Assembly (NCBI GenBank): GCA_963700375.1 | Contig: CAVOXF010000003.1 | Span: 13,079-77,078, forward strand | Reading direction: 5' to 3' | Source: an uncultured Actinomycetota bacterium | Lineage (GTDB): Bacteria; Actinomycetota; Acidimicrobiia; Spongiisociales; UBA5794 | DNA length: 64,000 bases | Shown here: positions 12,511 to 60,205 of the stretch, piece after piece | Position numbering within the stretch: position 1 is the first letter of the stretch | Layout of the letters: each line of letters opens with the position of its first letter | Notes under the pieces: generated by a model | What the model was told of the DNA's origin: nothing | Seen by the model: only the letters and a program-made list of their open reading frames with translations | Database searches by the model: none | Translations under genes and position numbers: made by a program

Positions 12511-14586
12511 TCACGGGGACGGAACGATGGTGCACGCACATTCGATACGGGCGGGCGGCATCATCGTTCCGCTCGGCGGCCCGGCAGCGATCAACCATGG
12601 GCCCTTGCTCGCCGGGCAGTCGGCGCAAGGATGCCCTGCTGTCACGACAACGACTTCTGGTGCTCCGAGGTCGGCGAGCGCAGCCGTCACCCCTTCGTGA
12701 TAGGAGGCGCGCGATGCGAACCGAACCCGGCGCTCGGCATCGTCGGTCCGCCACGAGCGGAACACCCGGGACAGCGCCGCACCGGCCTCACGGTGTCCGG
12801 CACCGGTCTCACGGGAACGAGCGACCGAGGCCCGGGCGGCGTCGACGAGCGCTGCTGCGAACTCGATCGAGGGATCTCCCGGCGCTGCAGCGTCAGGCTG
12901 GGGCGTCTGGATCGCTCCGGTCATCTCGGCCGCCGCTGCGAACCCGGCCACCATGCTCTCCTGAGCCAGGACCTTCAGTGACTCGACGACCTCATCGCTC
13001 ACGATCGAGGCGTCGGGTTCCCATCCGTCGGTAAGACGGAGATCCTCGAGGGCACGGTTCTGGGCCTCGACGAGGTGCCGCTTGACCGTTCGGAGCGCCC
13101 GATTCTGGACGGGGAGAAGGAGCTTCTCCCGGAGGGCGACCGGGTCGAGAGCGTCGGCAGGTGGTGACGACGCTGCCGGATCGTGAGCGGGCTCGCGCTC
13201 CGCCCGTGTGAGCCCCGCTGCGTCGTCGTTCCGCTTCTCCGCGTCCCCCCGCTCTTCGATCGGGAGGACGGGTGCCGGCTCCGGCGCGAGCGAGAGACTC
13301 CCGCCATCATCGCTTGGCGGCGCTGCCGCCTCCGCCTGACGGGGAGGAATCGTCTTCTTGGACGACGGGGTGCGGAGCTGGGCGAAGAGACCGGCGAGGG
13401 CGTCCGGAGCAGGTTCGGGTTCCGGCTCGGGTTCCGGTTCCGGCTCGGGTTCCGGTTCCGGCTCGGGTTCCGGTTCCGGCTCGGGTTCCGGTTCCGGCTC
13501 GGGTTCCGGTTCCGGCTCGGGTTCCGGTTCCGGCTCCGGTTCCGGTTCCGGTTCCGGTTCCGGTTCCGGTTCCGGCTCCGGTTCGGGTTCCGGTTCCGGC
13601 TCGGGCTCCGGGAATGGGGAATGGGGAATGGGGACTGGCAGCTCGACGCTGGTTGGCGGCTCGGCCCTGAGCGTCGACTGTCGTAGCGCTTGGACCTCGG
13701 CGACCATGGCGTCGGCATCCACGGGTCCTGCAGCCAGCACGCGGTCGGCGGACACGATCCTCACGGAGCCTTCGTCATCGGGCCAATGGCTCGCGACCGA
13801 TCCGTCGAGAATGACCGCAGCATCGTCGCCCACCAGCACCGGCTCATCGGCCGGAGGAGCCGGTTCGGGCTCCGGTTCAACGCCTGCGATCGTGGCCCGT
13901 GCGGCTTCGAGTTCGGCCATCAACTCCGATCGGCGCACCTCGAGAGCGCGGGCACGTTCCTGAGCGGCGTCGGCCTGGCGCCGCGCCGCGGACACCAGCG
14001 CCTCGGCCTCCTGCCGGGCCGCTGCGACCCGACGTTCCGCCTCTTCTCGTCCGACGCGTATGGACTCGTCCCTCTCGCGACGTGCGTCTGCGGTGAGGTG
14101 CGACGCCTCGCGCTCGGCCTCGGCTTGGACGAACAGGGAACGCTCCGTCGTTGCGATCGCCAGCGCTTCACCTTCGGTCACTGCGGAAGCGAGCATCTCG
14201 GTGCCCGTCTCCCATGCGGATCGACGCACCTCGAACGCTGTCTGCCGGGTGGCGTCGCGCACCGCACGCGATTCCGCATCCGCTTCGGCGCGCCAGCGTG
14301 CGGCATCATCAGCGGCACGCGACCGCATCTGCTCCGCGGCGACCCGGGCTTCGGCGAGGATCCGTTTGACTTCCTCCCCAACGAGGTCGAGTTCGGTCGC
14401 CAGGTCCGTCGGGCGGTTCAGCCCAAGTTCGCTCAGCCCGGTCTCGAGTTCCGCAATGCGCTGTTCGAGCGCTGCGGCGCGTCGGGACACGGCGGCGAGA
14501 TGGGCATCAACCTGCTGCCGGTCATAGCCCTTGCGGGTTACCCGGAACGCGTCGGCGGGCGCGCCAGAATCGGTGGACTCGTCCAT
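12511..14586 (-). CDS. DivIVA domain-containing protein with a long internal (Glu-Pro)n repeat
   Basis: N-terminal [17 protein letters not shown] DivIVA motif, long coiled-coil region, about 33 consecutive EP dipeptides, conserved-looking C-terminal domain with a CxxC...CxC tail. Confidence 0.65.
13412..13612 (-). repeat. tandem repeat with 18-bp periodicity (ggttccggttccggctcg, about 11 units) encoding (EP)n inside the DivIVA-like gene
   Basis: directly visible periodicity; the wrong-frame track ORFs here read SGSGSG, PVPARV and FRFRLG runs. Confidence 0.9.
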
Positions 14587-16431: not shown

Positions 16432-17022
16432 GTGCAGGCAGTCCACCCCAACGTCATCACCGCCATCACCCTCCCGCGCCGCGCAACAACCACGGTCGGT
16501 CTCATGGTCGGCTTCGCTCTGCTGACGGCTCTGGCCGCACAGGTCAGGATTCCGCTCCCCGGCACGCCGATCGCCATGACGGGCCAGACATTCGCGGTGC
16601 TGATCACCGGTGCGGCGCTGGGCTCCCGGGTCGCCGCCGGAAGCATGATGGTCTACGTCGCTCTCGGTGCGATCGGCCTCCCGTTCTTCGCCGGTGGTCA
16701 GGGTGGCTGGACCTACGCGACCGGCGCTTCCTTCGGATACCTCGCCGGCTTCATCGCCGCCGCATGGCTGGTCGGGCGCTTCGCAGAGCAACGCAAGGAT
16801 CGGTCGATTGGTACCGCCGTGCCCGCGTTCCTCGCCGGGAGCGCCGCCGTCTACACGCTCGGCGTCACGTGGCTGTGGGCGACGGTCGACTCGGTCCCAA
16901 CCCTGTCAGCCGCACTCAGCGCCGGTCTCTATCCGTTCGTAGCTGGCGACCTCATCAAGGCCATCCTCGCCGGCCTGGCTCTCCCCGCCGCCTGGTTCGT
17001 GGTGGATAGGGCCCGGAGATAG
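16432..17022 (+). CDS. bioY: biotin transporter BioY
   Basis: about 190-aa polytopic membrane protein with BioY-like TM pattern. Confidence 0.75.
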   Translation: MQAVHPNVITAITLPRRATTTVGLMVGFALLTALAAQVRIPLPGTPIAMTGQTFAVLITGAALGSRVAAGSMMVYVALGAIGLPFFAGGQGGWTYATGASFGYLAGFIAAAWLVGRFAEQRKDRSIGTAVPAFLAGSAAVYTLGVTWLWATVDSVPTLSAALSAGLYPFVAGDLIKAILAGLALPAAWFVVDRARR

Positions 17023-17093
17023 TCAGGAGCCCCCGGCGCCGTCGCTGCGCTCCTCGCCAATCCCCCGCCTTGCAGCCGGGCGACCGGCGACTC

Positions 17094-17930: not shown

Positions 17931-18709
17931 CGCTTCCGGCGCTTGTAGTGCTTGATGTCGCGGAAGGACTTGCGGTCCCCCTCTGCGTGGAGCCCGAGAT
18001 AGAACTCCTGCACGTCGGCATCGCCGAGGAGCTTGTCCGGCTCCCCGTCCATCACGACCTTCCCGGTCTCCATGATGTAGCCGTAGTCGGCGATCGACAG
18101 CGCCATGTTGGCGTTCTGCTCGATGAGCAGCACCGATGTTCCCTGCCGGTTGATGTCGACGATGATGTCACGAATCTGCTGAACGAGCATGGGAGCGAGT
18201 CCGAGCGTCGGCTCGTCGAGGATGAGCAACTCAGGGTCCGCCATCAACGCCCTGCCGATCGCGAGCATCTGCTGTTCGCCGCCAGACAGGTACCCGGCAG
18301 TGTCCTTCTGGCGGCCCTGAAGGACAGGGAACAGACCCATGACGCGGTCGCGTGCGGCGTTCACCGATCCCCGGTCGGTATTGGTGAACGCGCCGGTCCG
18401 CAGGTTGTCGTCGACGCTCATTTCGGCAAAGATCCTGCGGCCCTCGAGCACCTGGGCGATTCCCATGCGAACGATCGCCGATGGATCCTTTCCATCGATC
18501 CGCTCGTCCTTGAAGGTGACGGAGCCTTTGGTGATCTCACCGTTGTGGACGGTGAGGATGCCGGTGATGGCTCGAAGCGCCGTCGTCTTGCCCGCTCCGT
18601 TCGCTCCGAGGAGCGCAACGATCTGCCCGTCGCTCACCGTGAGCGACAGACCACGCAGCACGAGGACGACGTCGTTGTAGACGACTTCCAGGTTTGCGAC
18701 TTCGAGCAT
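17918..18709 (-). CDS. livF: branched-chain amino acid ABC transporter ATP-binding protein LivF-like
   Basis: Walker A GANGAGKT, signature LSGGEQQML, Walker B LILDEP; start ATG at 18709 (MLEVANLEV); upstream part of the track ORF is antisense junk. Confidence 0.85.
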   Translation of the reverse strand: MLEVANLEVVYNDVVLVLRGLSLTVSDGQIVALLGANGAGKTTALRAITGILTVHNGEITKGSVTFKDERIDGKDPSAIVRMGIAQVLEGRRIFAEMSVDDNLRTGAFTNTDRGSVNAARDRVMGLFPVLQGRQKDTAGYLSGGEQQMLAIGRALMADPELLILDEPTLGLAPMLVQQIRDIIVDINRQGTSVLLIEQNANMALSIADYGYIMETGKVVMDGEPDKLLGDADVQEFYLGLHAEGDRKSFRDIKHYKRRKRWLS

Positions 18710-18771
18710 CGAACCCTCTTCGTGTCTGCCGGGTGGTCGGACCCGCAGGCCCGACCACCCGGTTGTTCGGT

Positions 18772-20172
18772 CTAGAACTGGTAGCAGGCCTCGGTGAACT
18801 CGAAGGACTCGGCAGTCGGACCAACGAAGTCCGTCTGGATGATTTCCGAACCAGAGCCACCCGCCTCGAGATTCGCCACCGACGGACGCCACAGTGTGAT
18901 CGCCCGCTGGACCTGGTCCGACGTGCCGCCTGTGTAGTTCTCGGCGGGAGCCATGCCCTGGAACTCCACGTTGTCGAGTGACCGGATGGCGGCGAGCACT
19001 CCTGCCCGAGTCATGTCGCCGTTTTCGTAGGCCTTCTGGAGTGCCGCATGAACGAGCATTGCCTCCACGACACCGAGTCCGACGTAGTCGTTGGCCGGCA
19101 TGTCGGCTCCGGACGCCTCGACAAGCTGCATCGTCAGCGCCATGCCGGCGGAATCTCCACCCCACGGCTGCATGTAGAAGCCGCCGTACCAATCACGCTG
19201 GATTGCATCGGCGATCGGCGACACCAGGAACGCCGGGTTGTACGTAGGTCCGGCCCCGGACCACTTCGCTTCGAAGCCCTGGGCCAAGGCCCCGCCATAG
19301 ACCTCTGAGAACGTGCTCGGCGTCGTCGTGACGTAGACGAGGTCGGCGCCCGAGGCCACGATGGCATCGGCGACCGGCTTCAGGTCCTGGCCGGGCACGA
19401 TCGTCCCTGAACCGTCGTAGACCACCTCGATGCCGTTGGCTTCGGCCCACATGAGAGCACCGGCCATCGGGTCGAGCCCGAAGTCGCCGGGGATCGAGGC
19501 GAGGGCGAGCGTCGGAGCCTCGTTGCCTTCCTTCTTCTCCTCGTCGAGCATCCAGTCGAGGAGGCTCATCGCCTCCAAGCAGTACGGGGCGCCGGTGTGG
19601 AGCACCGTCGGTGCGATGTTCGTGTCGGTCCAGCCCGAGTACCAGGTCGCCGGGACGGCGATCATGCTGTCCTCTTCGAGAGCGTCGGCGATCGCCAGCG
19701 TCTGCGGTGACCCGGTGGTGTGGCTGATTGCCACGACCTGGTCGCGGAGTTCGTCGTAGGCGGCGATGTGCTGCTCGACCTCGTATGCCGTGTCGCGGGT
19801 CTCCATCATGACCTGGAGGCCACCGATGCCACCGTTGTTGTTGACCCACGCCCAGTACATCTTCTGGCCGGCGATGATCGGATTGACGAGCGGAGCGAAC
19901 GCTCCGGTCAGATCCGCCGTCTGTCCAACGGTGATCGTTCCTGCTTCGAGATCAACGCCATAGTCGGTCGCGATCTCCATCGGTTCCGTCGGCGGCGCCT
20001 CCGTGGTGGTTGTCGTCTCCTCACCACCGCTTGGAGCGGCCGTGGTCGTCGTCGTCTCGTCACCGCCGCTCGGAGCGGCCGTCGTGGTCGTGTCTTCACT
20101 GTCGCTGCTACAGGCCGCCGCGAAGAGCGCCAACACCAGCAACAGAACGAAGATTCTTGCCTTTCTCATCAT
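18772..20172 (-). CDS. ABC transporter substrate-binding lipoprotein (Liv/branched-chain amino acid type)
   Basis: signal peptide plus lipobox (LFAAAC), duplicated Thr-rich linker (APSGGDETTTTTAAPSGGEETTTTT), periplasmic binding domain. Confidence 0.75.
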   Translation of the reverse strand: MMRKARIFVLLLVLALFAAACSSDSEDTTTTAAPSGGDETTTTTAAPSGGEETTTTTEAPPTEPMEIATDYGVDLEAGTITVGQTADLTGAFAPLVNPIIAGQKMYWAWVNNNGGIGGLQVMMETRDTAYEVEQHIAAYDELRDQVVAISHTTGSPQTLAIADALEEDSMIAVPATWYSGWTDTNIAPTVLHTGAPYCLEAMSLLDWMLDEEKKEGNEAPTLALASIPGDFGLDPMAGALMWAEANGIEVVYDGSGTIVPGQDLKPVADAIVASGADLVYVTTTPSTFSEVYGGALAQGFEAKWSGAGPTYNPAFLVSPIADAIQRDWYGGFYMQPWGGDSAGMALTMQLVEASGADMPANDYVGLGVVEAMLVHAALQKAYENGDMTRAGVLAAIRSLDNVEFQGMAPAENYTGGTSDQVQRAITLWRPSVANLEAGGSGSEIIQTDFVGPTAESFEFTEACYQF

Positions 20173-20223
20173 TTCCTCCTCAGACCCGATCTCATGCCCT
20201 GGCCAGGGGCGATCGAGCGATTG

Positions 20224-21462
20224 CTAGTAGGTGAATGGCCACGACTTCCAGTAGTTGCGGATCCGGATCCAGATCCCGTACAGGCCGAGCGGTTCGAAGA
20301 TCAGGAATCCGATGAGGAGCAGTCCATAGAGCAGAAGATTGAACTGCCCGACATTGAGGCCGGGCGACGTGCCCGGGAGCGTGGAGACGATGCCGAAATC
20401 ACCGTTGCTCGTTGAGACGAAGACGCCGGCGATCGAAGCGGGTAGACCGCTCCCCGTCTCAGCGGTCGACGCAAGCAGGCCGGTGAAGTCCTGAACGAGA
20501 CGCGGAAGGACGACCACGAACGCCGCGCCGAGGAGGGTCCCGGTGACGGTTCCGATGCCGCCGATGAGCAGGATGGCCACGAACTCGACAGACATGATCA
20601 GGGAGAAGCCCTCGGGTACGAGGCGCCCGACGAACGCACCGAGGACAGCCCCGGCCACGCCGGCGAATGCAGACGAGAGGGCGAAGGCCATCAGTTTGTA
20701 GCGTGCGTCGGCGACGCCCATCACCTCGGCGGCGATGTCCCGGTCCCGGATCGACATGAACGCCCGGCCCACGCGGGTTCGCTGAATGTTCTTCGCGACG
20801 ATCACCGCGAGCACCACGAGCACCAGCAGCAGCAGGTAGGTCTTCGCCTCGCCCGTCATCTCAACGCCGAACCATGGTCCGTCTGCGGTGGGGTCGAGCA
20901 GGGGGACCTCTTCCTTCCACAGCCGGATCTCGAAGCCCGGGAACTTGCGCCCGGCCTGCGCGCCACCGGTGACTGACGGAAGGCTGCGGAAGATCCATTC
21001 GCCGATGAAGACAAGTCCAAGCGTGACGATGGCGAGATAGATGCCGCGGACCCGAACCGCCGTGGGGGCGATGAGCGCCCCGACTGCGGCGGCGACCGCC
21101 CCGGCGGCCGGTAGCCAGATCCATATCGGGAGGCCGAGGCCCCAGTGCGAAGCGCCCGTCTCTCCCCCGAGGATCGCCGCCGTGTAGGCGCCGATGGCCA
21201 CGAAGAAGGCGTGCCCAAGCGAGACCTGGCCGGCGAGGCCGGAGAGGATGTGGAGCCCGAGTGCTCCGATGGCGAAGATGGCAACGCGGCTGAGAATCTT
21301 CATCCAGTCGTTGTCCGAGAGGAAGCCCAATCCCGGGATGAGACCGAACGGGACGAGGGCGAGCACGGCGAGGAAGATCAGGGCAGTGGTCTTCTGCGTC
21401 CACGTCGGCAGCAACGCCATCTCCGACGAGTAGGTCACGTAGAGGCGGGGTCGATCCCTCAT
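20224..21462 (-). CDS. livM: branched-chain amino acid ABC transporter permease LivM-like
   Basis: polytopic permease; start ATG at 21462 overlapping the upstream permease stop (ATGA). Confidence 0.8.
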   Translation of the reverse strand: MRDRPRLYVTYSSEMALLPTWTQKTTALIFLAVLALVPFGLIPGLGFLSDNDWMKILSRVAIFAIGALGLHILSGLAGQVSLGHAFFVAIGAYTAAILGGETGASHWGLGLPIWIWLPAAGAVAAAVGALIAPTAVRVRGIYLAIVTLGLVFIGEWIFRSLPSVTGGAQAGRKFPGFEIRLWKEEVPLLDPTADGPWFGVEMTGEAKTYLLLLVLVVLAVIVAKNIQRTRVGRAFMSIRDRDIAAEVMGVADARYKLMAFALSSAFAGVAGAVLGAFVGRLVPEGFSLIMSVEFVAILLIGGIGTVTGTLLGAAFVVVLPRLVQDFTGLLASTAETGSGLPASIAGVFVSTSNGDFGIVSTLPGTSPGLNVGQFNLLLYGLLLIGFLIFEPLGLYGIWIRIRNYWKSWPFTY

Positions 21463-22445
21463 ACGCGCCGAATCTCCTCGGTGCCGAACAGTCCGTACGG
21501 ACGGACGAGCAGCACGATGAGCATCACGATGTACGGCATCACTCCGGAGAAGCCGAGTCCGAGGAACGACCAACTCGGCCCGGTGAGGTACGCCCCCGCA
21601 TATGACTCGGCCAGGCCGACGATGAACCCGCCGAGGACCGCCCCGGTGATCGAGTCGAGGCCGCCGATGACGATCGCCGGTAGAGCACGGAACGCGAAGA
21701 ACGCGGTCGTGTTGCCGACCCCGACGGACGACCTGGGGAAGAGGGACGAGAAGATCCCGGCGATCGCGGCGAGACCGGCGCCGATCGCCCATGCCATGGC
21801 GAAGATGCGGCCGGCGCTGATGCCCTGAGCCATCGCCGCCTCCTGATCGAAGGCCGTGGCGCGCATCGCGATCCCGTATCGAGACCGGAAGAACAGAGCG
21901 ATCCCGACGAGGCAGATGATGGTGACGATCACGGTCGCAACCTCGGACTTGGCGATGATCGCCGGGCCCACGTTGATGACGTCCGCACCCCACGGGTCGC
22001 CAAGCGGTCTCGGGTTGGCACCAATGAGGTCGTCGGTGATCGTGCGGATCACGATGTCGAGCGCGATCGTGATCATCACCACCGAGAACAGCGGTTCACC
22101 GATCATCGGACGGATCGCCAGGCGCTCGAGCACGAGGCCCACAACGGCGGTGAGCAGGACCGCGACGAGCGCCGACAGGATCCACTGGATGGTGGTTGGG
22201 GCAAAGGTGACATACCGCCCCGGGAAGTTGATCACGGTTGCGAGGTAGGCGGCGAAGAACGCTCCGAGCGCGGCAATGGCGCCGTGGGCGAAGTTCAGGA
22301 CCTGGGTCGCCTTGTAGATGAGCACCAGGCCGAGCGCGAGCAGCGCGTAGATGGCTCCGAGTGCGATGCCGCTGCTGGTGACGTTGGCGAGTTTCTCGGC
22401 CGCGTCCTGGCCCCCTGCCTGTGCGAAGGTGACAACGACGAGCAT
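21459..22445 (-). CDS. livH: branched-chain amino acid ABC transporter permease LivH-like
   Basis: polytopic permease; start ATG at 22445 (MLVVVTFAQ), one nt overlap with the fadD-like stop. Confidence 0.8.
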   Translation of the reverse strand: MLVVVTFAQAGGQDAAEKLANVTSSGIALGAIYALLALGLVLIYKATQVLNFAHGAIAALGAFFAAYLATVINFPGRYVTFAPTTIQWILSALVAVLLTAVVGLVLERLAIRPMIGEPLFSVVMITIALDIVIRTITDDLIGANPRPLGDPWGADVINVGPAIIAKSEVATVIVTIICLVGIALFFRSRYGIAMRATAFDQEAAMAQGISAGRIFAMAWAIGAGLAAIAGIFSSLFPRSSVGVGNTTAFFAFRALPAIVIGGLDSITGAVLGGFIVGLAESYAGAYLTGPSWSFLGLGFSGVMPYIVMLIVLLVRPYGLFGTEEIRRV

Positions 22446-24361
22446 CACGACTCGTACATCCCGTTGACGAGATCGGAGAACGTGCTTTCCATCGCCCGAC
22501 GCTTGATCTTCTGCGTGGCCGTCAATTCGCCGTCTTCGTGGTCCAACTCTTTCGGGATGAGTCGGAACACCTTGATCTGCTCGACCGTCGCGAATTTCTC
22601 GTTCGTCTCGTTGACGACGCCCTGAATCAGTTCGATCACCTCGGGCTTCTCGGAGAGGTCCCGGTAGGTGGTGTAGGGGATGCTCTTGGAGAGCGCCCAG
22701 CCGCCGACCACGTCGTACTCGATCGCGATGAGCGCGGTGAGGTACTTGCGGCCGTCGCCGATGACCATCGCTTCCTTGACGAACGGCGAGGTCTTGAGGC
22801 TGTTCTCGATCTCCGAGGGTGAGATGTTCTTCCCGCCCGACGTGATGATGATGTGCTTGATCCGGTCGATGATCTTGATATGGGTTCCGTTGACCCACAC
22901 CCCGACGTCGCCGGTCATCAGCCATCCGTCCTCGGTGAACGTCTCAGCAGTCTCCCGGGGCTTGTTCCAGTAGCCGAGGAAGTTGCCGGGGTGCTTGGTC
23001 TGGATCTCGCCGGTCTTGTCGTCGAGGCGGAGGCCGATGCCGGGGTACGGCTCCCCGACGGTTCCCAGGATGGCGCGCCCGCCGAAGTTGAGCGTGGCGA
23101 CGGCGCTGTTCTCGGTCATCCCGTACAACTCGTACAAGGGGACGCCGAATCCCATGAAGAACTCGATGACCTCCGGCGCGATTGGTGCGGCGCTCGTCCC
23201 TGCCCATCGACACCGGCGCAGGCCGACCCGCTCCTTGAGGGCGCGGAACATGATGACGTTGCCGACCCAGTACGCCAGGCGGGTCGGGAGGGTGTAGTCG
23301 CCGCCGTGTTTGGCACGGCTCCGCCCGACGTACGCCGCGATCTTGAACCCAAGGGCGTTGACGAGGCGCTTCACGAACGAGGCGTCATTCGACTTGATGA
23401 GGATCGTGGCGTGGATCTTCTCCCAGATGCGGGGCACAGCGAAGAACAACGTCGGTTGGACCTCCTGGAGATTGATCTGGACGGTCTCGATCGACTCGGC
23501 GAAGTCGAGAATCGCCCCCGAGGAGCACATCGTCCACGTCGACATGATGCGTTCCGCAACGTGGCCGAGCGGGAGGTAGGTGAGAATCAGGTCGCTCGGG
23601 CCAGGAATCTTGCCGTCAGGGGCACGATCCGGGGCGAGGATCAGATTGTCGATGGCGAACGCGGCGTTCGCGTTGGTCAGCATCGCTCCCTTCGGCGGAC
23701 CGGTGGTTCCCGAGGTGTAGACGAGGGTCATGATGTCGTCGGATTCGGCTTCCGCCATCGCGGCGGCGACGCTGTTGGGATGCTGTTCGCGGTGGGCCCG
23801 GCCGAGTTCGAGGAAGTCGTCCCAGAAGAGCAGGCGTTCGTCGTCGTAGGAGCGCAGACCGCGGGGTTCCAGGTAGATGATCTTCGTGACGTTCGGGAAC
23901 GCCTCACGCCCGGGTTCGACGATCTTGTCGACCTGCTCCTGATCCTCAGCAAGGTGGACGCGGGCTCCGCAGTCGTTGACCAGATACTGCACCTCGGCAG
24001 TCGGGTTGGTCGGGTACAGGCCGGTCGACATAGCGCGGATCGCGATGGCGGCAAGGTCGAAGATCACCCATTCCGGCCGGTCTTCGGAGTGGATGGACAC
24101 AACGTCGCCATGGCGAACGCCGAGTGCGAGCAGGCCGTGAGACACGAGAACGATCTCTTCCCAGAGTTCGGCCCAGGTCCGCTGCTGCCAGATCCCGAGG
24201 CGCTTCTCGCGCATCGCGACCCCATCCGGAGAGGAAAGAGACCGCTCACGGACCATGAGAGCAACAGTGCGACATGCGTCGGATAGGTCGGGTCTCCCCG
24301 CCTGTTCGAGCGTGGTCGTCACGGCCCCATCGCCTCCAGTCCTCCGGCCCCAACGCCACAA
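22445..24361 (-). CDS. long-chain fatty-acid--CoA ligase (AMP-dependent synthetase, FadD family)
   Basis: AMP-binding motif YTSGTTGPPKGAM, TGD motif, C-terminal ...GKNISPSEIE; start uncertain (24361 ATG or internal). Confidence 0.8.
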   Translation of the reverse strand: MWRWGRRTGGDGAVTTTLEQAGRPDLSDACRTVALMVRERSLSSPDGVAMREKRLGIWQQRTWAELWEEIVLVSHGLLALGVRHGDVVSIHSEDRPEWVIFDLAAIAIRAMSTGLYPTNPTAEVQYLVNDCGARVHLAEDQEQVDKIVEPGREAFPNVTKIIYLEPRGLRSYDDERLLFWDDFLELGRAHREQHPNSVAAAMAEAESDDIMTLVYTSGTTGPPKGAMLTNANAAFAIDNLILAPDRAPDGKIPGPSDLILTYLPLGHVAERIMSTWTMCSSGAILDFAESIETVQINLQEVQPTLFFAVPRIWEKIHATILIKSNDASFVKRLVNALGFKIAAYVGRSRAKHGGDYTLPTRLAYWVGNVIMFRALKERVGLRRCRWAGTSAAPIAPEVIEFFMGFGVPLYELYGMTENSAVATLNFGGRAILGTVGEPYPGIGLRLDDKTGEIQTKHPGNFLGYWNKPRETAETFTEDGWLMTGDVGVWVNGTHIKIIDRIKHIIITSGGKNISPSEIENSLKTSPFVKEAMVIGDGRKYLTALIAIEYDVVGGWALSKSIPYTTYRDLSEKPEVIELIQGVVNETNEKFATVEQIKVFRLIPKELDHEDGELTATQKIKRRAMESTFSDLVNGMYES

Positions 24362-24396
24362 TAGAGGCTTGACCTGCCGCCTGCTGGAAACCCCAC

Positions 24397-24526
24397 GCTG
24401 CGAACCCAGGGTTCTCCGCTTTCTATTTGGCGCCGACAGCCCACAGAATGAACCGGGCCGCTGTGGCCTTCCATTCCGCGGGCTGTCGGCGTCACATACG
24501 ATGTGGAGAACCCTGGGTTCGCAGCG
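24397..24526. repeat. structured intergenic repeat family 1, copy 2
   Basis: same 21-bp terminal inverted repeats and inner stem as 7029..7160; abuts the stop codon of the HEAT-repeat gene and lies about 35 bp upstream of the fadD-like ORF start. Confidence 0.8.
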
Positions 24527-24934
24527 CTAGCCGGGCTGGCGTCCGACGACCATCTCCGCCGCCTCGCGGACCGACGGATTCCGATCTCGCGCCGCCGCCC
24601 GGATCGCCGGCTCAACGGCCGGATCGTCGAAGACGGTCAGAGCCACCACCGCCCGCCGCCGAACCTGGGGAGGGGCTTTGGCGACCAGTTCGAGCAGCGC
24701 AGAGAGGGCCGCGTCATCCCCGATTGCGCCCAGCGCGGCAACGGCCGCCTCGCGACCGGAGCGGTCGCCGTCGCCGGTCGCCACGTCGATGAGCCAAGGG
24801 ACCGCCGACTCGGCGCGGAGTTCGCCGTAGGCGGTGGCAATCGATTCGACCACGCGGGGATCATCGTCGGACCGGGCCAGGTCCAAGTCCGGAATCACCG
24901 CTCTACCCGCTCCCCCAAGCGCTTCGGCGGCCAT
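24527..24934 (-). CDS. HEAT repeat domain-containing protein (N-terminus unresolved)
   Basis: repeated ...AVEAL..IGD..A...L... HEAT-like units; only ATG at 24934; frame remains open with coding-like GC3 up to ~25147, see findings. Confidence 0.5.
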   Translation of the reverse strand: MAAEALGGAGRAVIPDLDLARSDDDPRVVESIATAYGELRAESAVPWLIDVATGDGDRSGREAAVAALGAIGDDAALSALLELVAKAPPQVRRRAVVALTVFDDPAVEPAIRAAARDRNPSVREAAEMVVGRQPG

Positions 24935-25124
24935 CGCACGCGCCGCGCCGTCGTGATCCGTGGCGAGGCGTCGGCTGATCGCTGCGATCGATTCGTCAGT
25001 CAGGCCCGAAGCGATGCAGACGGAGATGGCGAGGCGGCGCAGGGCGGCATCGCCGTGATCGAGGAACGGGATCGGGTCATCGAGGAGGCGAACCAGCGCC
25101 TCGCGATCGGCGGACGTTGCGGTA

Positions 25125-25580
25125 TCAGTAGTGATGAAGATCCTCCCTCACCCACTCGGCTCCGCCCGGCCAGTGCTCCTTCTTCCAGATCGGAGCCCGC
25201 GCCTTGATCTCGTCGATCAAGTAGCGCCCTGCGGGAAACGCGTCACTCCGGTGAGGCGTTGACACCGCAACGGCCACCGAGATCTCGCCGACCCGCAACT
25301 CCCCGACCCGGTGGATCGCTGCGACCTTGCTGACCGGCCAGCGCTCGCGGACCTCGGCGACGACTTCGGCGATCTTGTCGATGACCTGCTCGTCGTACGA
25401 CTCGTATTCGAGATGGGTCACCCCCGTCCGGCCCGGCGAGTGGTCCCTCACCGTTCCCACGAACAGCACGACCGCTCCCGCATCGGGGGAGGAAACGGCC
25501 GCTACAACGTCGCCCGGATCCACCGGATCGGCGGACACAGCGATCAGATCGGACTGCTGGGATAGGTGGTCTGAGGGCAT
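25125..25580 (-). CDS. moaE: molybdopterin synthase catalytic subunit MoaE
   Basis: 151-aa product with conserved IHRVGELRVGE...YLIDEIKARAPIWKKE motifs; ATG at 25580; the upstream part of the 322-aa track ORF is junk. Confidence 0.8.
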   Translation of the reverse strand: MPSDHLSQQSDLIAVSADPVDPGDVVAAVSSPDAGAVVLFVGTVRDHSPGRTGVTHLEYESYDEQVIDKIAEVVAEVRERWPVSKVAAIHRVGELRVGEISVAVAVSTPHRSDAFPAGRYLIDEIKARAPIWKKEHWPGGAEWVREDLHHY

Positions 25581-25592
25581 ACAATCGGCTCC

Positions 25593-26918
25593 GTGGACGA
25601 CACTACCAATGGAAACACACCATCGGTGCCTGAGCCTGACCCCTCGGATGAGCTCTATCCGCCATACGTGGCATACGTGAGGCCCTGGAGTTCGGAGAAC
25701 GGGCCGACGACACGGCGGTCGCCGGCGCCACCACCGGCCCCTGAGCCGAAGCCGCGCAGCCACATCTCGACCGGCGTGATCGCCTTCCTTGCGGCCGTGG
25801 TCGGCGCCATCGTCGGCATCGCACTGCTCGCGGCGCTTGGCGTCTTCTCGGATGATCCCGTCGAGGTTGCGACACCGCCGACCACCGCGCCCGCCACCAC
25901 CGTCGTTCGCGACGTCACAACCGAGATCGTCACCATCCCGACCGACCCCGGCGCTCCCGAGGCTGTTGCCGTCAAGGTCGTGCCCTCCGTGGTCACCGTC
26001 CAAGTGGGCGATCTCGAAGCGGACACGCTCACCCTGAGGGGATCGGGGTCCGGCGTGATCCTGGAGAACGGCTACATCGCCACGAACCACCATGTCATTG
26101 ACAACGCATCATTCGCCCGGATCGTCTTGCAGGATGGCCGCACGTACGACACCGAGATCATCGGATCCGATGCGTATACCGACCTCGCCGTGCTCAAGGT
26201 TGACATCGACGGACTCAGACCGATCGAGTTCGGATCCACCGACGATCTCGCCATCGGCCAGATGGCGATTGCCGTCGGCAATCCTCTGGGCCAAGACGGA
26301 GGGGCGTCACTCACCGTCGGTGTGATCTCCGCGTTGTCGCGGACCGTCGACTTCGAGGATGGCACCGGCCTCTACGGCATGCTCCAGACCGACGCGCCGA
26401 TCACCTCCGGCTCGAGCGGCGGCGCGCTTGTCGACGAGATGGGGAGGCTCATTGGGATCACCTCGGCGATCGGCGTCAGCCAGGCCGGCGCCGAAGGCAT
26501 CGGATACGCGATACCCGTCGAACTCGTTGAGCGGATCACCAGTGAGATCATCGAGACCGGAACTGCGAAGCATCCGTTCATCGGCATTTACGGGAACGAC
26601 TACGTCGTGACCGCCGACGACGGAGCGCTGACTCCGAGCGGGGCAGAGATCGCCGAAATCATTGAGGGCGCCTCGCCGGCCGGCGACTCGGGCTTCCTGC
26701 CCGGGGATGCAATCGTCGAGGTCGAGGGCGCCGAGATTAAGACCATGGAGGACCTGATCATCGCACTGCGCCTCTTCCACGTCGGCGAAGAAGTCCAGGT
26801 GACGGTGACCCGCGACGACGTGCCGATCACTGCCACCGTGCTCTTGATCGAGCGCCCGGATGATACGCCGCCCCTGACCAGCGAAGCGGGAGTCGAAGAG
26901 GTCCCCGGTGACGAGTGA
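25593..26918 (+). CDS. htrA: HtrA/DegP-like trypsin-like serine protease with PDZ domain
   Basis: cytoplasmic tail, TM helix, catalytic H (ATNHHV), D, S (GSSGGAL) triad, C-terminal PDZ. Confidence 0.8.
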   Translation: MDDTTNGNTPSVPEPDPSDELYPPYVAYVRPWSSENGPTTRRSPAPPPAPEPKPRSHISTGVIAFLAAVVGAIVGIALLAALGVFSDDPVEVATPPTTAPATTVVRDVTTEIVTIPTDPGAPEAVAVKVVPSVVTVQVGDLEADTLTLRGSGSGVILENGYIATNHHVIDNASFARIVLQDGRTYDTEIIGSDAYTDLAVLKVDIDGLRPIEFGSTDDLAIGQMAIAVGNPLGQDGGASLTVGVISALSRTVDFEDGTGLYGMLQTDAPITSGSSGGALVDEMGRLIGITSAIGVSQAGAEGIGYAIPVELVERITSEIIETGTAKHPFIGIYGNDYVVTADDGALTPSGAEIAEIIEGASPAGDSGFLPGDAIVEVEGAEIKTMEDLIIALRLFHVGEEVQVTVTRDDVPITATVLLIERPDDTPPLTSEAGVEEVPGDE

Positions 26919-28053
26919 CCTCCCTTTCCGTGGCGACGGCGACGACCTGTTTGCTCAGCTGTTTCGTCTCTTCCAGTCGTCGGGACCCGTCAACTGGAAC
27001 CTCGCCAAAGAGCTGACCAAGAACCTCGCCGGAGAACGCGAGCTGATCGAACCGGATCTCGCCGAGGAATACCGCGAACTCGGAACCGTTGCCGAATTGA
27101 GGATTCAGGCGACCTCGGATCTCCCGTCGCCATCGCCCGGAGACCTCAACCCGACCGACCGCACCACCTGGGCGCTCGAGAACCTGAAGACCTTCCGGAT
27201 TCTCGTCGAACCGCTGTCCGACAAACTCTCCGGCGGCTTCGCCGGTCTGCCCGGCGCTGAATCGCTCGGCCAGATGGGCGCAATGCTCCAGCCGCTCGGC
27301 CCGGCGCTGCTCGGGATGCAGGCAGGAACGATGGTTGGTTTCATGTCGCACCGGGTTCTCGGCCAGTTCGATACCGGGATTCCAGCCATCGACCACGATC
27401 AGCCGTACCTCGTGGTCCCCAACGTCGAGGCGTTTGCGTTCGAGGCTGAAGTCGACGTTCGCCAGGTCCGGCTGTGGGCGACCATTCACGAAATGGTGTT
27501 CCAACGCCTGATGGAGATCGAATGGCTGCGCGGACACTTCGTCTCGGTCGTCAACGCGTTCTACGACACCGTCGAGTTCGATGTGTCCGACATCATGGGC
27601 CAAATGGGGGCCCTCAACGACCCCGACCGCATTCGTGACCTCCTCGGCGAGGATGGTGCGTCTGCGCCGGCGCTGCTGAAGGGAACCGCCGACCCCGACC
27701 GCCTTGCAGCAATCCAATCGTGCACGGCGTTCATCGAGGGGTTCGGCGACTTCCTCGTGAGGCGGGCCGGATCGGACCTCCTCCCGGATCTCGATCGCAT
27801 CGAGAGCGCAAACGCACGACGGCGGTCCGAACCGGACCAGGCGGAGCAGTACCTCCAGCAGATCGTGGGGCTCGAACTCCAACGGTTCCGAGCCACCGAT
27901 GCCGCCGACTTCTGCCGCGAGGTCGAGCAGCGCTGGGGCGAACCGGCGCTCGACCGCGTCTGGGAGCAGCCGGAGAACCTGCCGACCCTGCCAGAACTCA
28001 CCGACCCCGTCGGCTGGGCCGCCCGCGTGATGATGGATCAATTCGATCTCTAG
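26908..28053 (+). CDS. zincin-like metallopeptidase domain protein (DUF2342 family)
   Basis: family-level resemblance (WATIHEMVFQ region); overlaps the htrA stop by 11 nt; GTG start. Confidence 0.55.
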   Translation: MTSDLPFRGDGDDLFAQLFRLFQSSGPVNWNLAKELTKNLAGERELIEPDLAEEYRELGTVAELRIQATSDLPSPSPGDLNPTDRTTWALENLKTFRILVEPLSDKLSGGFAGLPGAESLGQMGAMLQPLGPALLGMQAGTMVGFMSHRVLGQFDTGIPAIDHDQPYLVVPNVEAFAFEAEVDVRQVRLWATIHEMVFQRLMEIEWLRGHFVSVVNAFYDTVEFDVSDIMGQMGALNDPDRIRDLLGEDGASAPALLKGTADPDRLAAIQSCTAFIEGFGDFLVRRAGSDLLPDLDRIESANARRRSEPDQAEQYLQQIVGLELQRFRATDAADFCREVEQRWGEPALDRVWEQPENLPTLPELTDPVGWAARVMMDQFDL

Positions 28054-28059
28054 GTCGCC

Positions 28060-28195
28060 AGTCGCCAGGTCCCCTGAGGCCAACGGACGGGGGACGCGAA
28101 GGAGCGACAGCGACGACGCAGGTGGGCTTCGGGAGCCCGAGGCTGAAGATGAGGCCGGAAATGGCTCGCGGTTCGCAGCCGGCAGCCGTTCGTTC
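28060..28195. repeat. structured intergenic repeat family 2, copy A
   Basis: shares a roughly 70-nt core (GGGGGACGCG.AGGAGC.ACAGCGACGACGCAGG.GG.CTTC.GGGAGCCCGAGGC...GAAGATGAGGCC) with 42350..42475 and partly with 60100..60205. Confidence 0.6.
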
Positions 28196-28235
28196 TCGCG
28201 CTAGATTCCCGGCAGACTCACCAAGGAGACTCCGC

Positions 28236-28700
28236 ATGGCCGTGAAGATCGGTACGACACCGAAATCGTTCTCTCTCTTGGACCAGGACAAGAACCCCGT
28301 CACCCTCGACGACCTCAGGGGCAAGAAGAGCCTGATCGTCTTCATCCCGTTCCCGTTTACCGGCCACTGCGACAACGAGGCGTGCGCGATCCGGGATCAG
28401 CTCGCGGCACTGAACGACCTTGATGCGAACGTCGTCGTGATCACGTGCCACGCCGTGCCGGTCGCAAAGAAGTGGTCGGATGAGAACGGCTTCACCTTCC
28501 CGGTCCTATCGGACTTCTGGCCGCACGGGCTCGTGGCAACCAGCTTTGGTGCCTTCAACTGGGATGTCGGTGCCGCCAACCGGATGACCTTCGTCCTTGA
28601 CGCCCACGGGGTTGTGCGCACGATCATCGACAGCGGTTCGCTCGGGACACCACGCGAGTTCGAGGAGTACGTCGCCGCTCTCGGCAAGATCGACGAATAG
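28236..28700 (+). CDS. ahpE: AhpE-like 1-Cys peroxiredoxin (AhpC/TSA family)
   Basis: strong resemblance to mycobacterial AhpE (FTGHC peroxidatic Cys, LSDFWPHG, NRMTFVLD); RBS AAGGAGAC 6 nt upstream of ATG 28236. Confidence 0.8.
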   Translation: MAVKIGTTPKSFSLLDQDKNPVTLDDLRGKKSLIVFIPFPFTGHCDNEACAIRDQLAALNDLDANVVVITCHAVPVAKKWSDENGFTFPVLSDFWPHGLVATSFGAFNWDVGAANRMTFVLDAHGVVRTIIDSGSLGTPREFEEYVAALGKIDE

Positions 28701-28710
28701 GGGCATCAGC

Positions 28711-29655
28711 ATGGCGGAGACCGGCGAGGAGCACGAGCGGGAAACGAGCCGCATCCGCACGAACGCGGCGGTTGTGGTTGCGGTTCTGGGGGTGCTGCTC
28801 GCGACGATGGCTGTCGATGCCCTCTGGCTCCACGACCGGATCTTCAACACCGATCACTTCGTCGAGTCGCTGGCTCCACTCCCGCAGGACCCTGCGATTT
28901 CAACGGCAATCGCCGCCAAGACCGTCGAGGTTCTCGGATCCGGCGGCGCGGCCGAGTCCAAGGTCGCCGAGGTACTCCCAGACCGTCTCGCGTTCCTCGC
29001 TCCGCGGGTCATGGGCCTCGTCGAGGAGCAGGTCTTCGAAGCAACCCAGGGACTCGTCGCATCGGATGCGTTCGCTACGGTCTGGACCAAGGGACTCGAA
29101 CTGCTGCACTCGCGGATCATCGGCATCCTCGAGGGTGACCCGGCCCAGCCGAAAGAAGGCGGCATCGGGATCGCCCTCGAAGGAACGGCCGGACTCGTTC
29201 AAGCTGAACTCGACAGGCGGGGTATCGACCTGTTTGCCGATATTGAAACCAAGGCCGTGGAGATCGTTTTCATCCAGGCCGATGTGCTGGCGGGACCGCG
29301 CACGCTCGTGAACGTGTTCCACACCGGCGTGTGGGTGCTGCCGATCGTGGCGCTGATCGTTCTCGGTCTGGCGGTCCTCATCGACAAGGACCGCCTCCGC
29401 CCCATCCAGATCTTCGGATTCGGCCTCGCCATTGCCGAGCTCCTGAGCCTCGCCGGCATCCGGATCTTCGCGGGCTACGCCGGCGGAAAGATCGAGAACG
29501 AGGTCTATCGAGCGGGGGCCGGCGCCGTCTGGGATGCCCTCCTCAACGGCTATCTGGCGATCAGCGCCGTCGTGGGATTCACCGCCCTCGCGATCGGTCT
29601 CGCAGCCTGGTGGTTCCGCCGCCCGGATCCCGACTGCGGGATGGTCGAGGCTTGA
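28711..29655 (+). CDS. hypothetical membrane protein
   Basis: ATG at 28711, N-terminal TM helix and two C-terminal TM helices; no recognisable domain. Confidence 0.4.
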   Translation: MAETGEEHERETSRIRTNAAVVVAVLGVLLATMAVDALWLHDRIFNTDHFVESLAPLPQDPAISTAIAAKTVEVLGSGGAAESKVAEVLPDRLAFLAPRVMGLVEEQVFEATQGLVASDAFATVWTKGLELLHSRIIGILEGDPAQPKEGGIGIALEGTAGLVQAELDRRGIDLFADIETKAVEIVFIQADVLAGPRTLVNVFHTGVWVLPIVALIVLGLAVLIDKDRLRPIQIFGFGLAIAELLSLAGIRIFAGYAGGKIENEVYRAGAGAVWDALLNGYLAISAVVGFTALAIGLAAWWFRRPDPDCGMVEA

Positions 29656-29683
29656 CGCTCCCGAGGCCTGCTAGGCTCGGGCG

Positions 29684-30373
29684 TCATCGCCTACGCACCC
29701 AGCCGATAGCCGACGCCCCGCACCGTCTCGATGCTCGTGGCGCACCGTCGACTTGTTCGAGCTTCCGCCGGAGGCGCCGGATGTGCTGGTCGAGGGTCTT
29801 CGAATCGGTCCACGTGATGCCCCATATCTCATCGAGGAGCCGCTCGCGGGGCACGATCCGCCCCCGCTCGATCATCAACGCCTCCAGCACCTCGAACTCC
29901 TTGCGGGGCAGGTCGAACACCAACGCTCCGGCGCGAAGCTGATAGCGCCCCTGGTCGAGTTCTATGTTGCCGGCTCGCACGATCCGTTCCTCTGTTCCAC
30001 GGGTCTCGCCATCAGCGATCGACCGTCGGAGAGCGGCGTGAACGCGGGCGAGGAGCTCGCGAATCGAATAGGGCTTCGCCAGGTAGTCGTCGGCCCCTAA
30101 CTCGAGCGCGGTAACGATGTCCGATTCAGCATCCTTGGCTGAGAGCACAATCACCGGCGTGGTCGCCTCGGTACGAATCCTGCGGAGCACATCCAACCCC
30201 GACATCTCCGGCAACATGAGGTCGAGCAACACAATGTCGGGAACATCCTCGAGGAAGGCCATGAGTCCAGCTCGTCCATCCATGGCAGCTGATACGTCGA
30301 AACCCTCCCGCTCGAGAGCAACGGACAAGGCCTCCACGTAGGCCGGTTCATCCTCGACGACTAGAACACGCAT
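29684..30373 (-). pseudogene. regX3: OmpR/PhoB-family response regulator (RegX3-like) with a -1 frameshift in the DNA-binding wing near 29730..29740
   Basis: REC domain (MRVLVVEDEP...D...K) plus winged helix; the annotated frame ends ...APRASRRCGASAIGWVRRR, while the alternate frame encodes the canonical OmpR C-terminus IETVRGVGYRLGA followed by TAG at 29691. Confidence 0.75.
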
Positions 30374-42349: not shown

Positions 42350-42475
42350 ACTGTCCCCCCGGTCGAAAGCCGGGGGACGCGGAGGAGCACCAGCGACGAC
42401 GCAGGGGCCTTCTGGGCGCTCGTATGGTGAAGATGAGGCCATGCGAAGGACGCAGGAGGCAGGCTGCGCGCGCGA
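42350..42475. repeat. structured intergenic repeat family 2, copy B (begins with tight hairpin CCCCCGG-TCGAAAG-CCGGGGG)
   Basis: aligns with 28060..28195 over about 70 nt; lies between the whiB 3-prime end and the start of the membrane-protein gene. Confidence 0.6.
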
Positions 42476-42480
42476 GATCG

Positions 42481-48892: not shown

Positions 48893-49013
48893 CGTGGTCC
48901 TCCCTGTGAGCGGTTTGACGCAAGGCTAGTTCGCTCCAGCGCCGTTCACCGGAGGCGCTGAGTCAATCTGCGGGAAACCGGAAGCCGCCCACATCGTCGC
49001 TGGCGCTCGTCCG

Positions 49014-49042
49014 CGTCCCCCCGTCCTTCGGCCGGGGGGACG
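49014..49042 (-). terminator. hairpin terminator downstream of icd (10-bp stem CGTCCCCCCG / CGGGGGGACG)
   Basis: perfect inverted repeat immediately after the icd stop. Confidence 0.5.
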
Positions 49043-49048
49043 GGTCTG

Positions 49049-59979: not shown

Positions 59980-60099
59980 CGGAACCCGGAGTGTACCGGT
60001 CCCCCGTGCGCGAACTACATGCGAGTAAGTAGGCGTGAGTTGCGGGCCACGTGCTCGGCTCGCTGAACAGCTGAGTGTTCGTCGCTTCTCCCACGAAGT

Positions 60100-60205
60100 G
60101 GGGGAGGCGCAAGCATCCGGCCGGGCGGCTGGAGCGCAGCGGAGGGGGCTTTGGGAGCCCGAGGCGCCCCAGATGAGCTCTGGCGACTGGAAGCTGACGA
60201 CTGGC
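60100..60205. repeat. structured intergenic repeat family 2, partial copy C
   Basis: shares GGAGCG.AGCG..AGG.GGGCTT.GGGAGCCCGAGGC with 28060..28195 and 42350..42475; lies between pcrA and the CheA-like gene. Confidence 0.45.

Follow-up and report, generated by a model that had tools for sequence, protein, structure and literature searches.

Which kind of sequence lies repeated between genes of unrelated function in this uncultured member of the Acidimicrobiia? The window (the whole stretch analyzed, 64,000 nucleotides of contig CAVOXF010000003.1) had previously been read from its letters alone, and this sequence-only reading described a core of about 70 nt common to three intergenic regions, those of copies A, B and C below, that might be a small-RNA family or an element similar to the repetitive extragenic palindromic (REP) sequences. 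Our analysis indicates that the observation was real but incomplete and that the proposal is partly confirmed, the REP-like half holding and the small-RNA half not. The copies belong to a repeat family that exists beyond these three sites and is widespread. We consider it likely that the repeats, short and interspersed, are a family of the REP kind, or of the kind of the bacterial interspersed mosaic elements (BIMEs), carried by uncultured Acidimicrobiia and comparable to the Rickettsia palindromic elements (RPEs) when found inside genes. Its copies survive mainly where the harm they do is small, that is, behind genes (above all convergent ones) and in disordered protein linkers, there in one hydrophilic and acidic frame.

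The repeat unit

Aligning all the copies gave the consensus cCTGTCCCCCCGGCCGAAGGACGGGGGGAC-GCGGAGGAGCG(n)CAGCGACGACGCAGGGGGGc. This is a core of about 60 nt composed of a GC hairpin, GTCCCCCC...GGGGGGAC, and the tail that follows it, GCGGAGGAGCG(n)CAGCGACGACGCAGGGGGG. The hairpin itself is 23-28 nt long (-14 to -28 kcal/mol), with a stem of 9-12 bp that is almost pure G-C. The tail, of about 33 nt, is T-free, purine-rich and non-palindromic, contains GGAGGAG and finishes with a run of G. The flanks are also recognizable, with a conserved CCT preceding the stem and C(A) following the run of G. An optional 3' extension module of about 35 nt (GGCTCYGGGAGCC...GAAGATGAGGCC), which includes the small hairpin GGGCTTCGGGAGCCC already noticed in the sequence-only reading, was present in about 8 of the 94 profile matches, copies A and B among them. 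What had been taken for a single 70-nt core is actually the family core (hairpin and tail) plus this optional extension.

The hairpin is maintained by compensatory substitution. In a model-fitted alignment of 110 copies, which leans towards structure, 96.5% of the cells were paired and 55 compensatory cells were found at 7 of the 11 pairs, with a covariation score of 0.203 against 0.089 in shuffles. In a plain MAFFT alignment 87.6% of the cells were paired, compared with 43-58% when the partners were slid, and 19 cells were doubly changed versus 4.6 in shuffles. The basal eight pairs (GTCCCCCC/GGGGGGAC) are nearly invariant, the (C/T)GTC of the 5' end being paired with the 3' GAC (GC in 94, UA in 95 and CG in 98 of about 106 sequences), and a purine-purine mismatch after the basal stem is conserved in 38 of 46 informative sequences. 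It is the apical stem and loop that vary, with compensation (GGCC-GAA-GGAC, GACGG-N-ACGGC, GGC-TTG-CC, GGCGG-TGCC-GCC, CAC-GCA-GTG and CTGC-GAA-GCG). The tail is conserved at about 90% across genera. Intergenic copies vary by 1-nt indels in the tail and by differences in loop length that are not multiples of three.

U.G wobble pairs on the written strand amounted to about 40 stem cells, 30 of them at one pair alone, and the non-standard stem cells, a total not split by type, were 39. At the two most variable pairs of the plain alignment there were 2 C.A versus 12 U.G. Besides, the fold z-scores were between -1.4 and -2.4 for four of the five core copies of the window (-0.4 for copy F) and about 0 for the antisense strand. 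Since U.G is common, C.A is rare and the element is biased towards the sense strand of genes (see below), the written strand has moderate support as the folding one, RNA and single-stranded DNA not being separable in this respect.

Distribution among genomes

A degenerate pattern of 26 nt, taken from the hairpin-tail junction, served to scan the GTDB species, one genome each. The scan gave 75 loci (fetched loci are designated by L-numbers), 72 of them with real copies; L035, L046 and L071 were chance matches in other phyla. All but one of the 72 (71 loci) came from about 16 metagenome-assembled genomes (MAGs) labelled Acidimicrobiia, Actinomycetota or Actinomycetes. A covariance-model search of the window and 77 fetched loci, 533 kb altogether, recovered 110 copies. 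The regions pointed out in the sequence-only reading are accompanied by three more copies in the window and by many in related genomes.

Five loci were syntenic with the window at 73-83% nucleotide identity, and therefore the genomes are related at roughly the genus to family level. The contig of the window also matches a JGI (Joint Genome Institute) metagenome fragment. A locus labelled Dehalococcoidia (L053, in a 2.8-Mb contig) has two copies, 6186-6244 and 3882-3940, both on the minus strand, with a tail near-identical to the Acidimicrobiia consensus and another hairpin, compensated internally (CCTCCCCTTCGC...GCGAGGGG). The label may be wrong, the copies may have come by horizontal transfer, or the family may be wider. 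Many copies are also carried by the MAG CAXMQO, labelled 'uncultured Saprospiraceae' (L001, L004, L014, L028, L051 and L075), whose locus L028 is syntenic with positions 17101-20297 of the window (82.7% identity). Given this synteny at about 82% identity, the Saprospiraceae (Bacteroidota) label is probably wrong.

Viral contigs gave no matches to the element, so there is no sign of a phage vector. Rfam 15 had no matching family at gathering thresholds over the whole window, and relaxed thresholds applied to copy A and four long-form loci gave only chance-level matches (E of about 0.4-1). A full-text literature search, by sequence strings and by REP or palindromic repeats in Acidimicrobiia and Actinobacteria, found no earlier description. 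The family is apparently undescribed, although the kind of element, a REP/BIME-like repeat, is already known.

Copies in the window

The copies found in the window and their parts were as follows:

28066..28160, plus strand: copy A, long form, a 95-nt element within the interval 28060-28195
28066-28127, plus strand: core of copy A (covariance-model match, 61 bits)
28119-28160, plus strand: extension of copy A (extension-profile match, E = 5e-8)
42350..42446, plus strand: copy B, long form, with its core at 42350-42410 (covariance model, 66 bits)
42401-42446, plus strand: extension of copy B (extension-profile match, E = 4e-9)
60084..60186, plus strand: copy C, a diverged 'C-type' relative (extension profile at 60143-60186, E = 4.6e-7)
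48983..49044, minus strand: copy D, short form, core only (covariance model, 71.4 bits)
13212..13272, minus strand: copy E, intragenic, sense within a DivIVA-like gene (covariance model, 74.7 bits)
17028..17088, minus strand: copy F, short form (covariance model, 58 bits)

The similarity among them is far beyond chance. The five core copies (A, B, D, E and F) gave 58-75 bits with the covariance model, and the minus-strand copies D, E and F were recovered alike by BLAST, nhmmer profile and covariance model (E of about 1e-11 to 2e-15). Five of the six copies are intergenic though only 8% of the window is non-coding (92% coding; P = 1.7e-5). The common core that had been claimed for three regions stands for A and B (28088-28156 versus 42371-42440: 84.5% identity over 71 nt, blastn E = 3e-14 within the window) and only partly for C, which has in common with A a 20-nt exact-like stretch (blastn E = 0.002, within the window). 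In the same way, the plus-strand orientation is right for these three copies and does not extend to the family, D, E and F being on the minus strand. The gene labels proposed for the neighbours (ahpE-like, whiB, pcrA and CheA-like) agree with Pfam.

Copy A consists of the hairpin GTCCCC-loop-GGGGAC, the tail GCGAAGGAGCGACAGCGACGACGCAGGTGGG, the extension hairpin GGGCTTCGGGAGCCC and then GAGGCTGAAGATGAGGCC. The stop codon of a zincin-like peptidase gene (26908-28053, plus strand) lies 13 nt before its start, and an AhpC/TSA peroxiredoxin gene (28236-28700, plus strand) is found 75 nt past its end (84 nt from the nhmmer end at 28151). Its fold reaches -38.4 kcal/mol, with z = -1.7 for the sense strand and +0.6 for the antisense. 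Copy B, whose opening hairpin is present as had been reported, is antisense to both flanking genes, whiB (42481-42768, minus strand; identified by Pfam) and an unannotated gene of 314 aa (41346-42290, minus strand).

Copy C was recovered neither by the nhmmer core profile nor by the covariance model of the core, which gave only weak partial matches at 60084-60108 and 60114-60150. Its hairpin is CTCCCAC-GAA-GTGGGGGAG, also written CTTCTCCCAC-GAA-GTGGGGGAG, and it contains a second, inserted hairpin, CCGGCCGGGCGGCTGG, a degenerate tail, AGCGCAGCGGAGGGGG, and then the extension GCTTTGGGAGCCCGAGG...CAGATGAGC (fold of -56.7 kcal/mol, z = -2.35). The same architecture is present in L003 (5126-5225), L044 and L056, with which copy C makes up a diverged subfamily. 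This copy is also antisense to both flanks, pcrA/uvrD (57799-59979, minus strand) and a CheA-like hybrid kinase gene (60219-63416, minus strand).

Copy D starts about 3 nt past the stop of an isocitrate/isopropylmalate dehydrogenase gene (49049-50251, minus strand) and precedes a malate/lactate dehydrogenase gene (47957-48892, minus strand), at about 67 nt from the nhmmer match or 90 nt from the end of the covariance-model core; the interval is also intergenic in the independent gene calls of the JGI contig. Copy F starts 6 nt past the stop of an ABC-transporter ATPase gene (17094-17930, minus strand). Its longer nhmmer match (17003-17087) overlaps the 3' end of the convergent BioY gene (16432-17022, plus strand) and is the only such BioY-ward match, the covariance-model core stopping about 6 nt short of that gene.

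Some functional readings of individual copies were tried and rejected. The hammerhead-like CUGAAGAUGAGG of copy A is replaced by GUGAAGA, GUGGAGA and GCGACGA in other long forms, and the Rfam ribozyme models gave no match. A CsrA-type GGA motif in the loop is contradicted by loops that vary freely (GAA, GCA, CTTG, GTGC). Read-through or bypass of the stop codons before A, D and F was discarded by the conserved C-termini upstream, the separate genes downstream and the different frame in the case of D.

Genomic context

Genes were called with a codon-usage model trained on the long open reading frames (ORFs) of these sequences, and the calls agree with the independent ones of the JGI contig and with Pfam. 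The 94 profile matches were distributed as 72 intergenic, 18 intragenic in sense and 4 intragenic in antisense. Merging orthologous and clustered copies left 50 de-duplicated sites. The intergenic ones among them were 13 convergent, 10 co-directional in sense, 3 co-directional in antisense and 2 divergent, over a background in which convergent gaps make up only 61 of the 422 gene junctions of the same sequences. The orientation of the element follows the upstream gene (25 versus 7) and not the downstream gene (18 versus 24). The claim that orientation was independent of gene direction does not survive this comparison, the sense bias at co-directional sites being 10 versus 3 (one-sided P = 0.046). 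The 98 neighbouring genes fell into 127 Pfam families with no common theme; they are unrelated housekeeping genes. The distance from the stop codon to the element was 13, 3 and 6 nt for A, D and F, a value that we do not generalize because the range across all loci was wide, from 4 to more than 500 nt.

No sigma-70-type promoter was detected at any copy, by a scan that captures actinobacterial promoters poorly. Neither did the scan find at any copy a terminator made of a hairpin plus a T run, and in the consensus the 33 nt that follow the hairpin lack T altogether. Canonical terminators were not enriched in the two parts of the window compared with shuffles (7 versus 6.6 +/- 3.1 in 12000-30000, and 7 versus 9.5 +/- 3.1 in 41001-61000). 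From its sequence, the organism probably does not rely on classical intrinsic terminators.

Copies inside genes

The 18 sense intragenic copies all use a single frame, PVPPAEGRGDAEERSDDAGG, in at least four unrelated proteins, the hosts being confirmed by Pfam. This frame encodes P(V/S)PPAEGRGDAEERSDDAGG, hydrophilic and acidic, and the peptide predicted for the copies in DnaE2, DivIVA or QcrB is GRGDAEERSDDAGG. The other two sense frames, read from the consensus, give strongly basic peptides. Because all six frames of the consensus are free of stop codons, the use of a single frame is a filter rather than a necessity.

The host of copy E is a DivIVA-like protein of 691 aa (12511-14586, minus strand), encoded by a continuous ORF. 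The protein has the DivIVA domain at its N-terminus, contains a long (EP)n tract and is conserved in the C-terminal region; the copy lies in a disordered linker and corresponds to 21 residues. The orthologues in L062, L063 and L028 are also encoded by one ORF each and contain 1-3 copies in the same frame. The (EP)n tract, about 70 residues, corresponds to a long, perfect-looking tandem repeat of the GAGCCGGAACCG type (window positions about 13400-13640, minus strand) and has a weak PARP-like repeat match in Pfam.

In the error-prone DNA polymerase DnaE2 of L008, L010 and L055 the element is found in a variable linker that splits the PHP domain (Pfam PHP residues 13-266). L008 and L055 contain an inverted dimer with both arms translated in the ORF, the antisense arm in a different frame. 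The copy of L010 is only the sense one, and in L077 an antisense arm is fused to a truncated sense tail. The linker of the PHP domain, located between GMP and RRGRIRRMHGSKP, is hypervariable, with 25-100 residues (about 6060-6400 in L008; also in L055, L010, L045 and L077). Many database entries for these DnaE2 proteins are annotated as 'partial', and the gene calls may have been broken at the repeat-rich linker. Further copies lie in linkers on the N-terminal side of cytochrome b and c subunits (L075, L025 and L001), and in L058 the host is a membrane protein, with the element in its C-terminal tail.

Gain, loss and arrangement

Copies have been gained, lost and rearranged between related genomes. 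The region after the ABC-ATPase gene contains copy F in the window, a C-type copy plus an inverted core copy in L003, and no element, only heptamer microsatellites, in L028. Copy number and arrangement also differ among the orthologues of DnaE2 and DivIVA. Inverted dimers were found in L008, L045 and L055 and tandem arrays in L031, L066 and L025, and truncated units also occur. In L019 the core is part of a tandem mosaic of several repeat modules, about 220 nt long and similar to a BIME cluster.

The direct repeats flanking 67 copies were of 4 nt at most, the same as in mismatched controls, and therefore there is no target-site duplication. A comparison of filled and empty sites in DnaE2 was uninformative. 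The junctions of the indels fall on GGGGGACG direct repeats, so that they fit deletion as well as insertion.

The only transposase gene adjoining copies belongs to the IS110 family (L019, 3033-4274, minus strand, with junctions near 4492 and 3005). The insertion is precise, into a third repeat module (GGCCCCCT^CTGCCCTGCCGGGCATCTCCCC) that has a core copy about 50 nt away, and the uninterrupted target can be seen in L022 and L029. IS110 was rejected as the mobilizer of the family, since the L019 gene interrupts a different module, with the empty site in L022. The insertion resembles those IS110-family elements that target REP sequences. In E. coli, IS621 targets REPs.

Nature of the family

The description as REP-like agrees with a GC hairpin in multiple copies, single or in dimers and arrays, located at gene 3' ends, with unrelated neighbours and without target-site duplication. 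Most likely, the hairpin, of about -20 kcal/mol, would act at the 3' end of the transcript of the upstream gene, blocking 3' exonucleases or helping to define the end. Both are things that E. coli REPs do. We propose this role at the RNA level because the preference for 3' ends and convergent gaps, the sense bias and the wobble asymmetry fit it, and another 3'-end structure is plausible given that the window has no excess of canonical U-tract terminators. The tail would probably be the recognition sequence of a putative trans-acting factor, which may be the spreading enzyme itself; we suggest the tail as the part that is read since its conservation exceeds that of the hairpin sequence, also in the genome labelled Dehalococcoidia. 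The spread would leave no duplication of the target.

Several observations weigh against this interpretation. The evidence for the RNA role consists of position, an orientation bias with P = 0.046 and the wobble asymmetry, and the last could instead reflect one successful T-bearing subfamily, from which much of the signal comes. In the window, B and C, two copies out of six, run antisense to the genes next to them. No described REP has anything near the length of the tail, whose apparent conservation is also exaggerated, because the loci were sampled by an exact pattern within it. The window copies are 10-20% diverged from the consensus, a drift like that of decaying repeats. No recurrent REP-associated tyrosine transposase (RAYT) or other transposase was found among the 98 neighbouring genes, and no clean pair of filled and empty sites was recovered among the compared loci. 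With the DnaE2 indels being ambiguous as well, active transposition is only a possibility.

The other suggestion of the sequence-only reading, a small-RNA family, would mean trans-acting RNA genes, each copy being its own transcription unit for a structured RNA of about 70-120 nt. The structural conservation of the hairpin with covariation speaks for it, as do the better folding of the sense strand over shuffles and the maintenance of the sequence across genera. We nevertheless think it improbable, as the copies appear to have no sigma-70-like promoter or intrinsic terminator (the 33 nt after the hairpin are T-free), and many start so close to the upstream stop codon (3-25 nt past it) that a promoter would not fit. 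They are also found in both orientations relative to their neighbours, 18 of them in frame inside confirmed genes, and arrays, tandem or inverted, and truncated units occur in the family, which has no match in Rfam and, in the window, decays roughly like neutral sequence. The place of copy A, in sense and 84 nt upstream of the start codon of the peroxiredoxin, could suggest a cis-regulatory leader or riboswitch of the downstream gene, such as ahpE. This is scarcely credible for the family, with neighbours in 127 Pfam families and no common pathway (a diversity on which the riboswitch was rejected), an orientation that tracks the upstream gene (25 versus 7) and not the downstream one (18 versus 24), and only 2 of the 28 classified sites in divergent promoter regions. 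The location at gene 3' ends, with the strong enrichment between convergent genes, the very stable hairpin and the lack of enrichment of canonical terminators in the window would also be compatible with ordinary terminators evolved in place and alike by convergence. Here the T-free tail means that no U-tract follows the hairpin, and a non-palindromic tail of 33 nt conserved at about 90% across genera cannot come from convergence. This identity excludes independent origins, and copies are found as well inside genes, in tandem and antisense to both neighbours, all of which makes such an origin very improbable.

That the true unit is a peptide motif, PVPPAEGRGDAEERSDDAGG, of disordered proteins, the likeness of the DNA being a by-product of coding, is suggested by the single frame of 18 out of 18 sense intragenic copies in at least four unrelated proteins, by the absence of stop codons in six frames and by a tail made of common GC-rich codons. 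Yet 72 of the 94 copies are outside called genes. Copies A, D and F begin just past the stops of complete genes whose C-termini are conserved among orthologues, D is intergenic in the independent JGI calls as well, and A has an in-frame TGA in the PVPPAEGRGDAEERSDDAGG frame. Among intergenic copies there are 1-nt indels of the tail and loop lengths that differ by other than threes, the antisense arm of DnaE2 is translated in a different frame, and the compensation in the stem together with the conservation of third codon positions points to selection on the nucleic acid, so that we find the peptide origin quite improbable. We also give little credence to a classical miniature inverted-repeat transposable element (MITE), a deletion derivative of a DDE-type insertion sequence moved by cut and paste, with terminal inverted repeats and target-site duplications. 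A small multicopy element, patchy at orthologous sites and sometimes intragenic, would fit. However, the direct repeats at 67 copies were no longer than in controls (the longest of 4 nt), the ends are not mutual inverted repeats, with a hairpin at the 5' end and the non-palindromic tail as the 3' half, and no transposase recurs nearby, the lone IS110-family gene of L019 being in a different adjacent module.

A last possibility, which we regard as unlikely though deserving attention, is that the unit is one of several modular translatable cassettes with which Acidimicrobiia build and remodel the acidic disordered linkers of core proteins (such as DnaE2, DivIVA and cytochrome bc subunits). Its T-free tail, conserved across genera and also in the Dehalococcoidia-labelled genome beside a different compensated hairpin, would be recognized by a mobilizing or RNA-binding factor. 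Other cassettes would be the CCTCCCC-hairpin family and the GGCCCCCTCTG...CATCTCCCC module. If true, the architecture of this REP-like system would be new, and its enzyme possibly too.

Comparison with known repeats

The REP-like interpretation can be compared with the REPs, BIMEs and REPINs (REP doublets forming hairpins) of Proteobacteria (PMC3733652). As there, we have found short, GC-rich, imperfect palindromes in many copies, which stand alone, in inverted dimers or in clusters together with other motifs and are located downstream of coding regions, mainly in convergent or co-directional gaps (here 13 convergent, 13 co-directional and 2 divergent). In both, intragenic copies turn up now and then, notably in replication or repair genes (DnaE2 here; uvrA/uvrB and others in PMC3733652), there is no target-site duplication and there are IS110-family insertions, here in the adjacent module of L019.

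Other features are different. The conserved unit is of about 60 nt because of its 33-nt tail, compared with the palindrome alone of 20-40 nt in REPs, and it has no unpaired GTAG or CGTC/TGTC tag, the GTC...GAC being base-paired. GTAG REPs flank the gene of a RAYT (a Y1/HUH transposase), and here none was recurrent among the 98 neighbouring genes; CGTC REPs, among which RPE-4 and RPE-6 are cited, have no dedicated transposase (PMC3733652). In CGTC REPs the stem is of 8-9 bp, positions 1-2 being A-T, and the loop of 4-5 nt (PMC3733652), in contrast to the almost pure G-C stems of 9-12 bp found here. The host is also different, an Actinomycetota, and the survey of Di Nocera et al. 2013 (PMC3733652), which covers eight phyla, never mentions Actinobacteria. 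The consensus is common to many species-level genomes, and REPs are usually more species-specific. With its paired tag, different stem and loop parameters and long tail, the family is, judging from these sequence features, not part of the described GTAG or CGTC superfamilies.

Rickettsia palindromic elements, reportedly described by Ogata and coworkers in 2000, are said to occur in frame within protein-coding genes. They are similar to the element described here in being hairpin repeats, intergenic and also in frame in unrelated and partly essential genes, with the frame kept and a hydrophilic segment added without disrupting the protein. They differ in their hosts, AT-rich alpha-proteobacterial endosymbionts, and in their size (100-150 bp for RPE-1), and have no sequence relationship to the Acidimicrobiia element. 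Here, besides, the copies are located in pre-existing disordered linkers together with other repeat modules, and in one sense frame.

MITEs such as Correia, ERIC/IRU and Nezha (PMC10969869) are alike in being small, non-autonomous and foldable as RNA, in affecting neighbouring transcripts and in being occasionally in frame. From a parent insertion sequence they derive their terminal inverted repeats and target-site duplications (PMC10969869), neither of which was found here.

For Actinobacteria, 'I-shaped' terminator hairpins without U-tract have been proposed, and the TRIT motif is conserved in Mycobacterium tuberculosis. Like our element, these are GC stem-loops without U-tract at gene 3' ends in high-GC Actinomycetota. 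By their description they are different, being defined by position and structure or, in the case of TRIT, by another sequence in another class, and they have not been described inside genes or as mosaic arrays.

The family provides a covariance-model signature for a widespread and mostly uncultured actinobacterial class, and draws attention to sequences by which gene callers and binning are confused. In a window without excess of canonical terminators, it provides candidates for 3'-end structures. After Rickettsia, it is also a second and independent case in which essential genes tolerate hairpin repeats in frame. The fixed frame and a tail better conserved than the hairpin are handles for finding the protein that recognizes it, and the interest would rise if a dedicated recognizing enzyme or a real role in shaping linkers emerged.

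Neighbouring repeats

A second, related hairpin family is formed by TTCCTCCCC-TCA-GGGGGAGG followed by TGTCGCC-GAA-GGCGACGGAGGGGGTC, with 20 matches in the fetched loci. It is present in the window at 53435-53497 (plus strand), 53576-53513 (minus strand) and 13359-13292 (minus strand). The first two form an inverted pair between two minus-strand genes, and the third is beside copy E in the DivIVA-like gene and is translated in the ORF. In the same linkers of other genomes this family encodes SSSSPSGGGVAEGDGGGQ. It may be the one called first repeat family in the sequence-only reading.

The intergenic regions around the elements are also rich in microsatellites of 6-7 nt whose units differ between loci (GAGATCC x3, TGTCTCN xn, GGCTACG, CTGTCGC, GTCTCG x4 and GGATCTC x4). 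They were seen in L003 (5040-5130), L028 (4700-4790), L018 (about 715-760) and L031 (about 3020-3080), and downstream of the copies in L015, L017 and L073.

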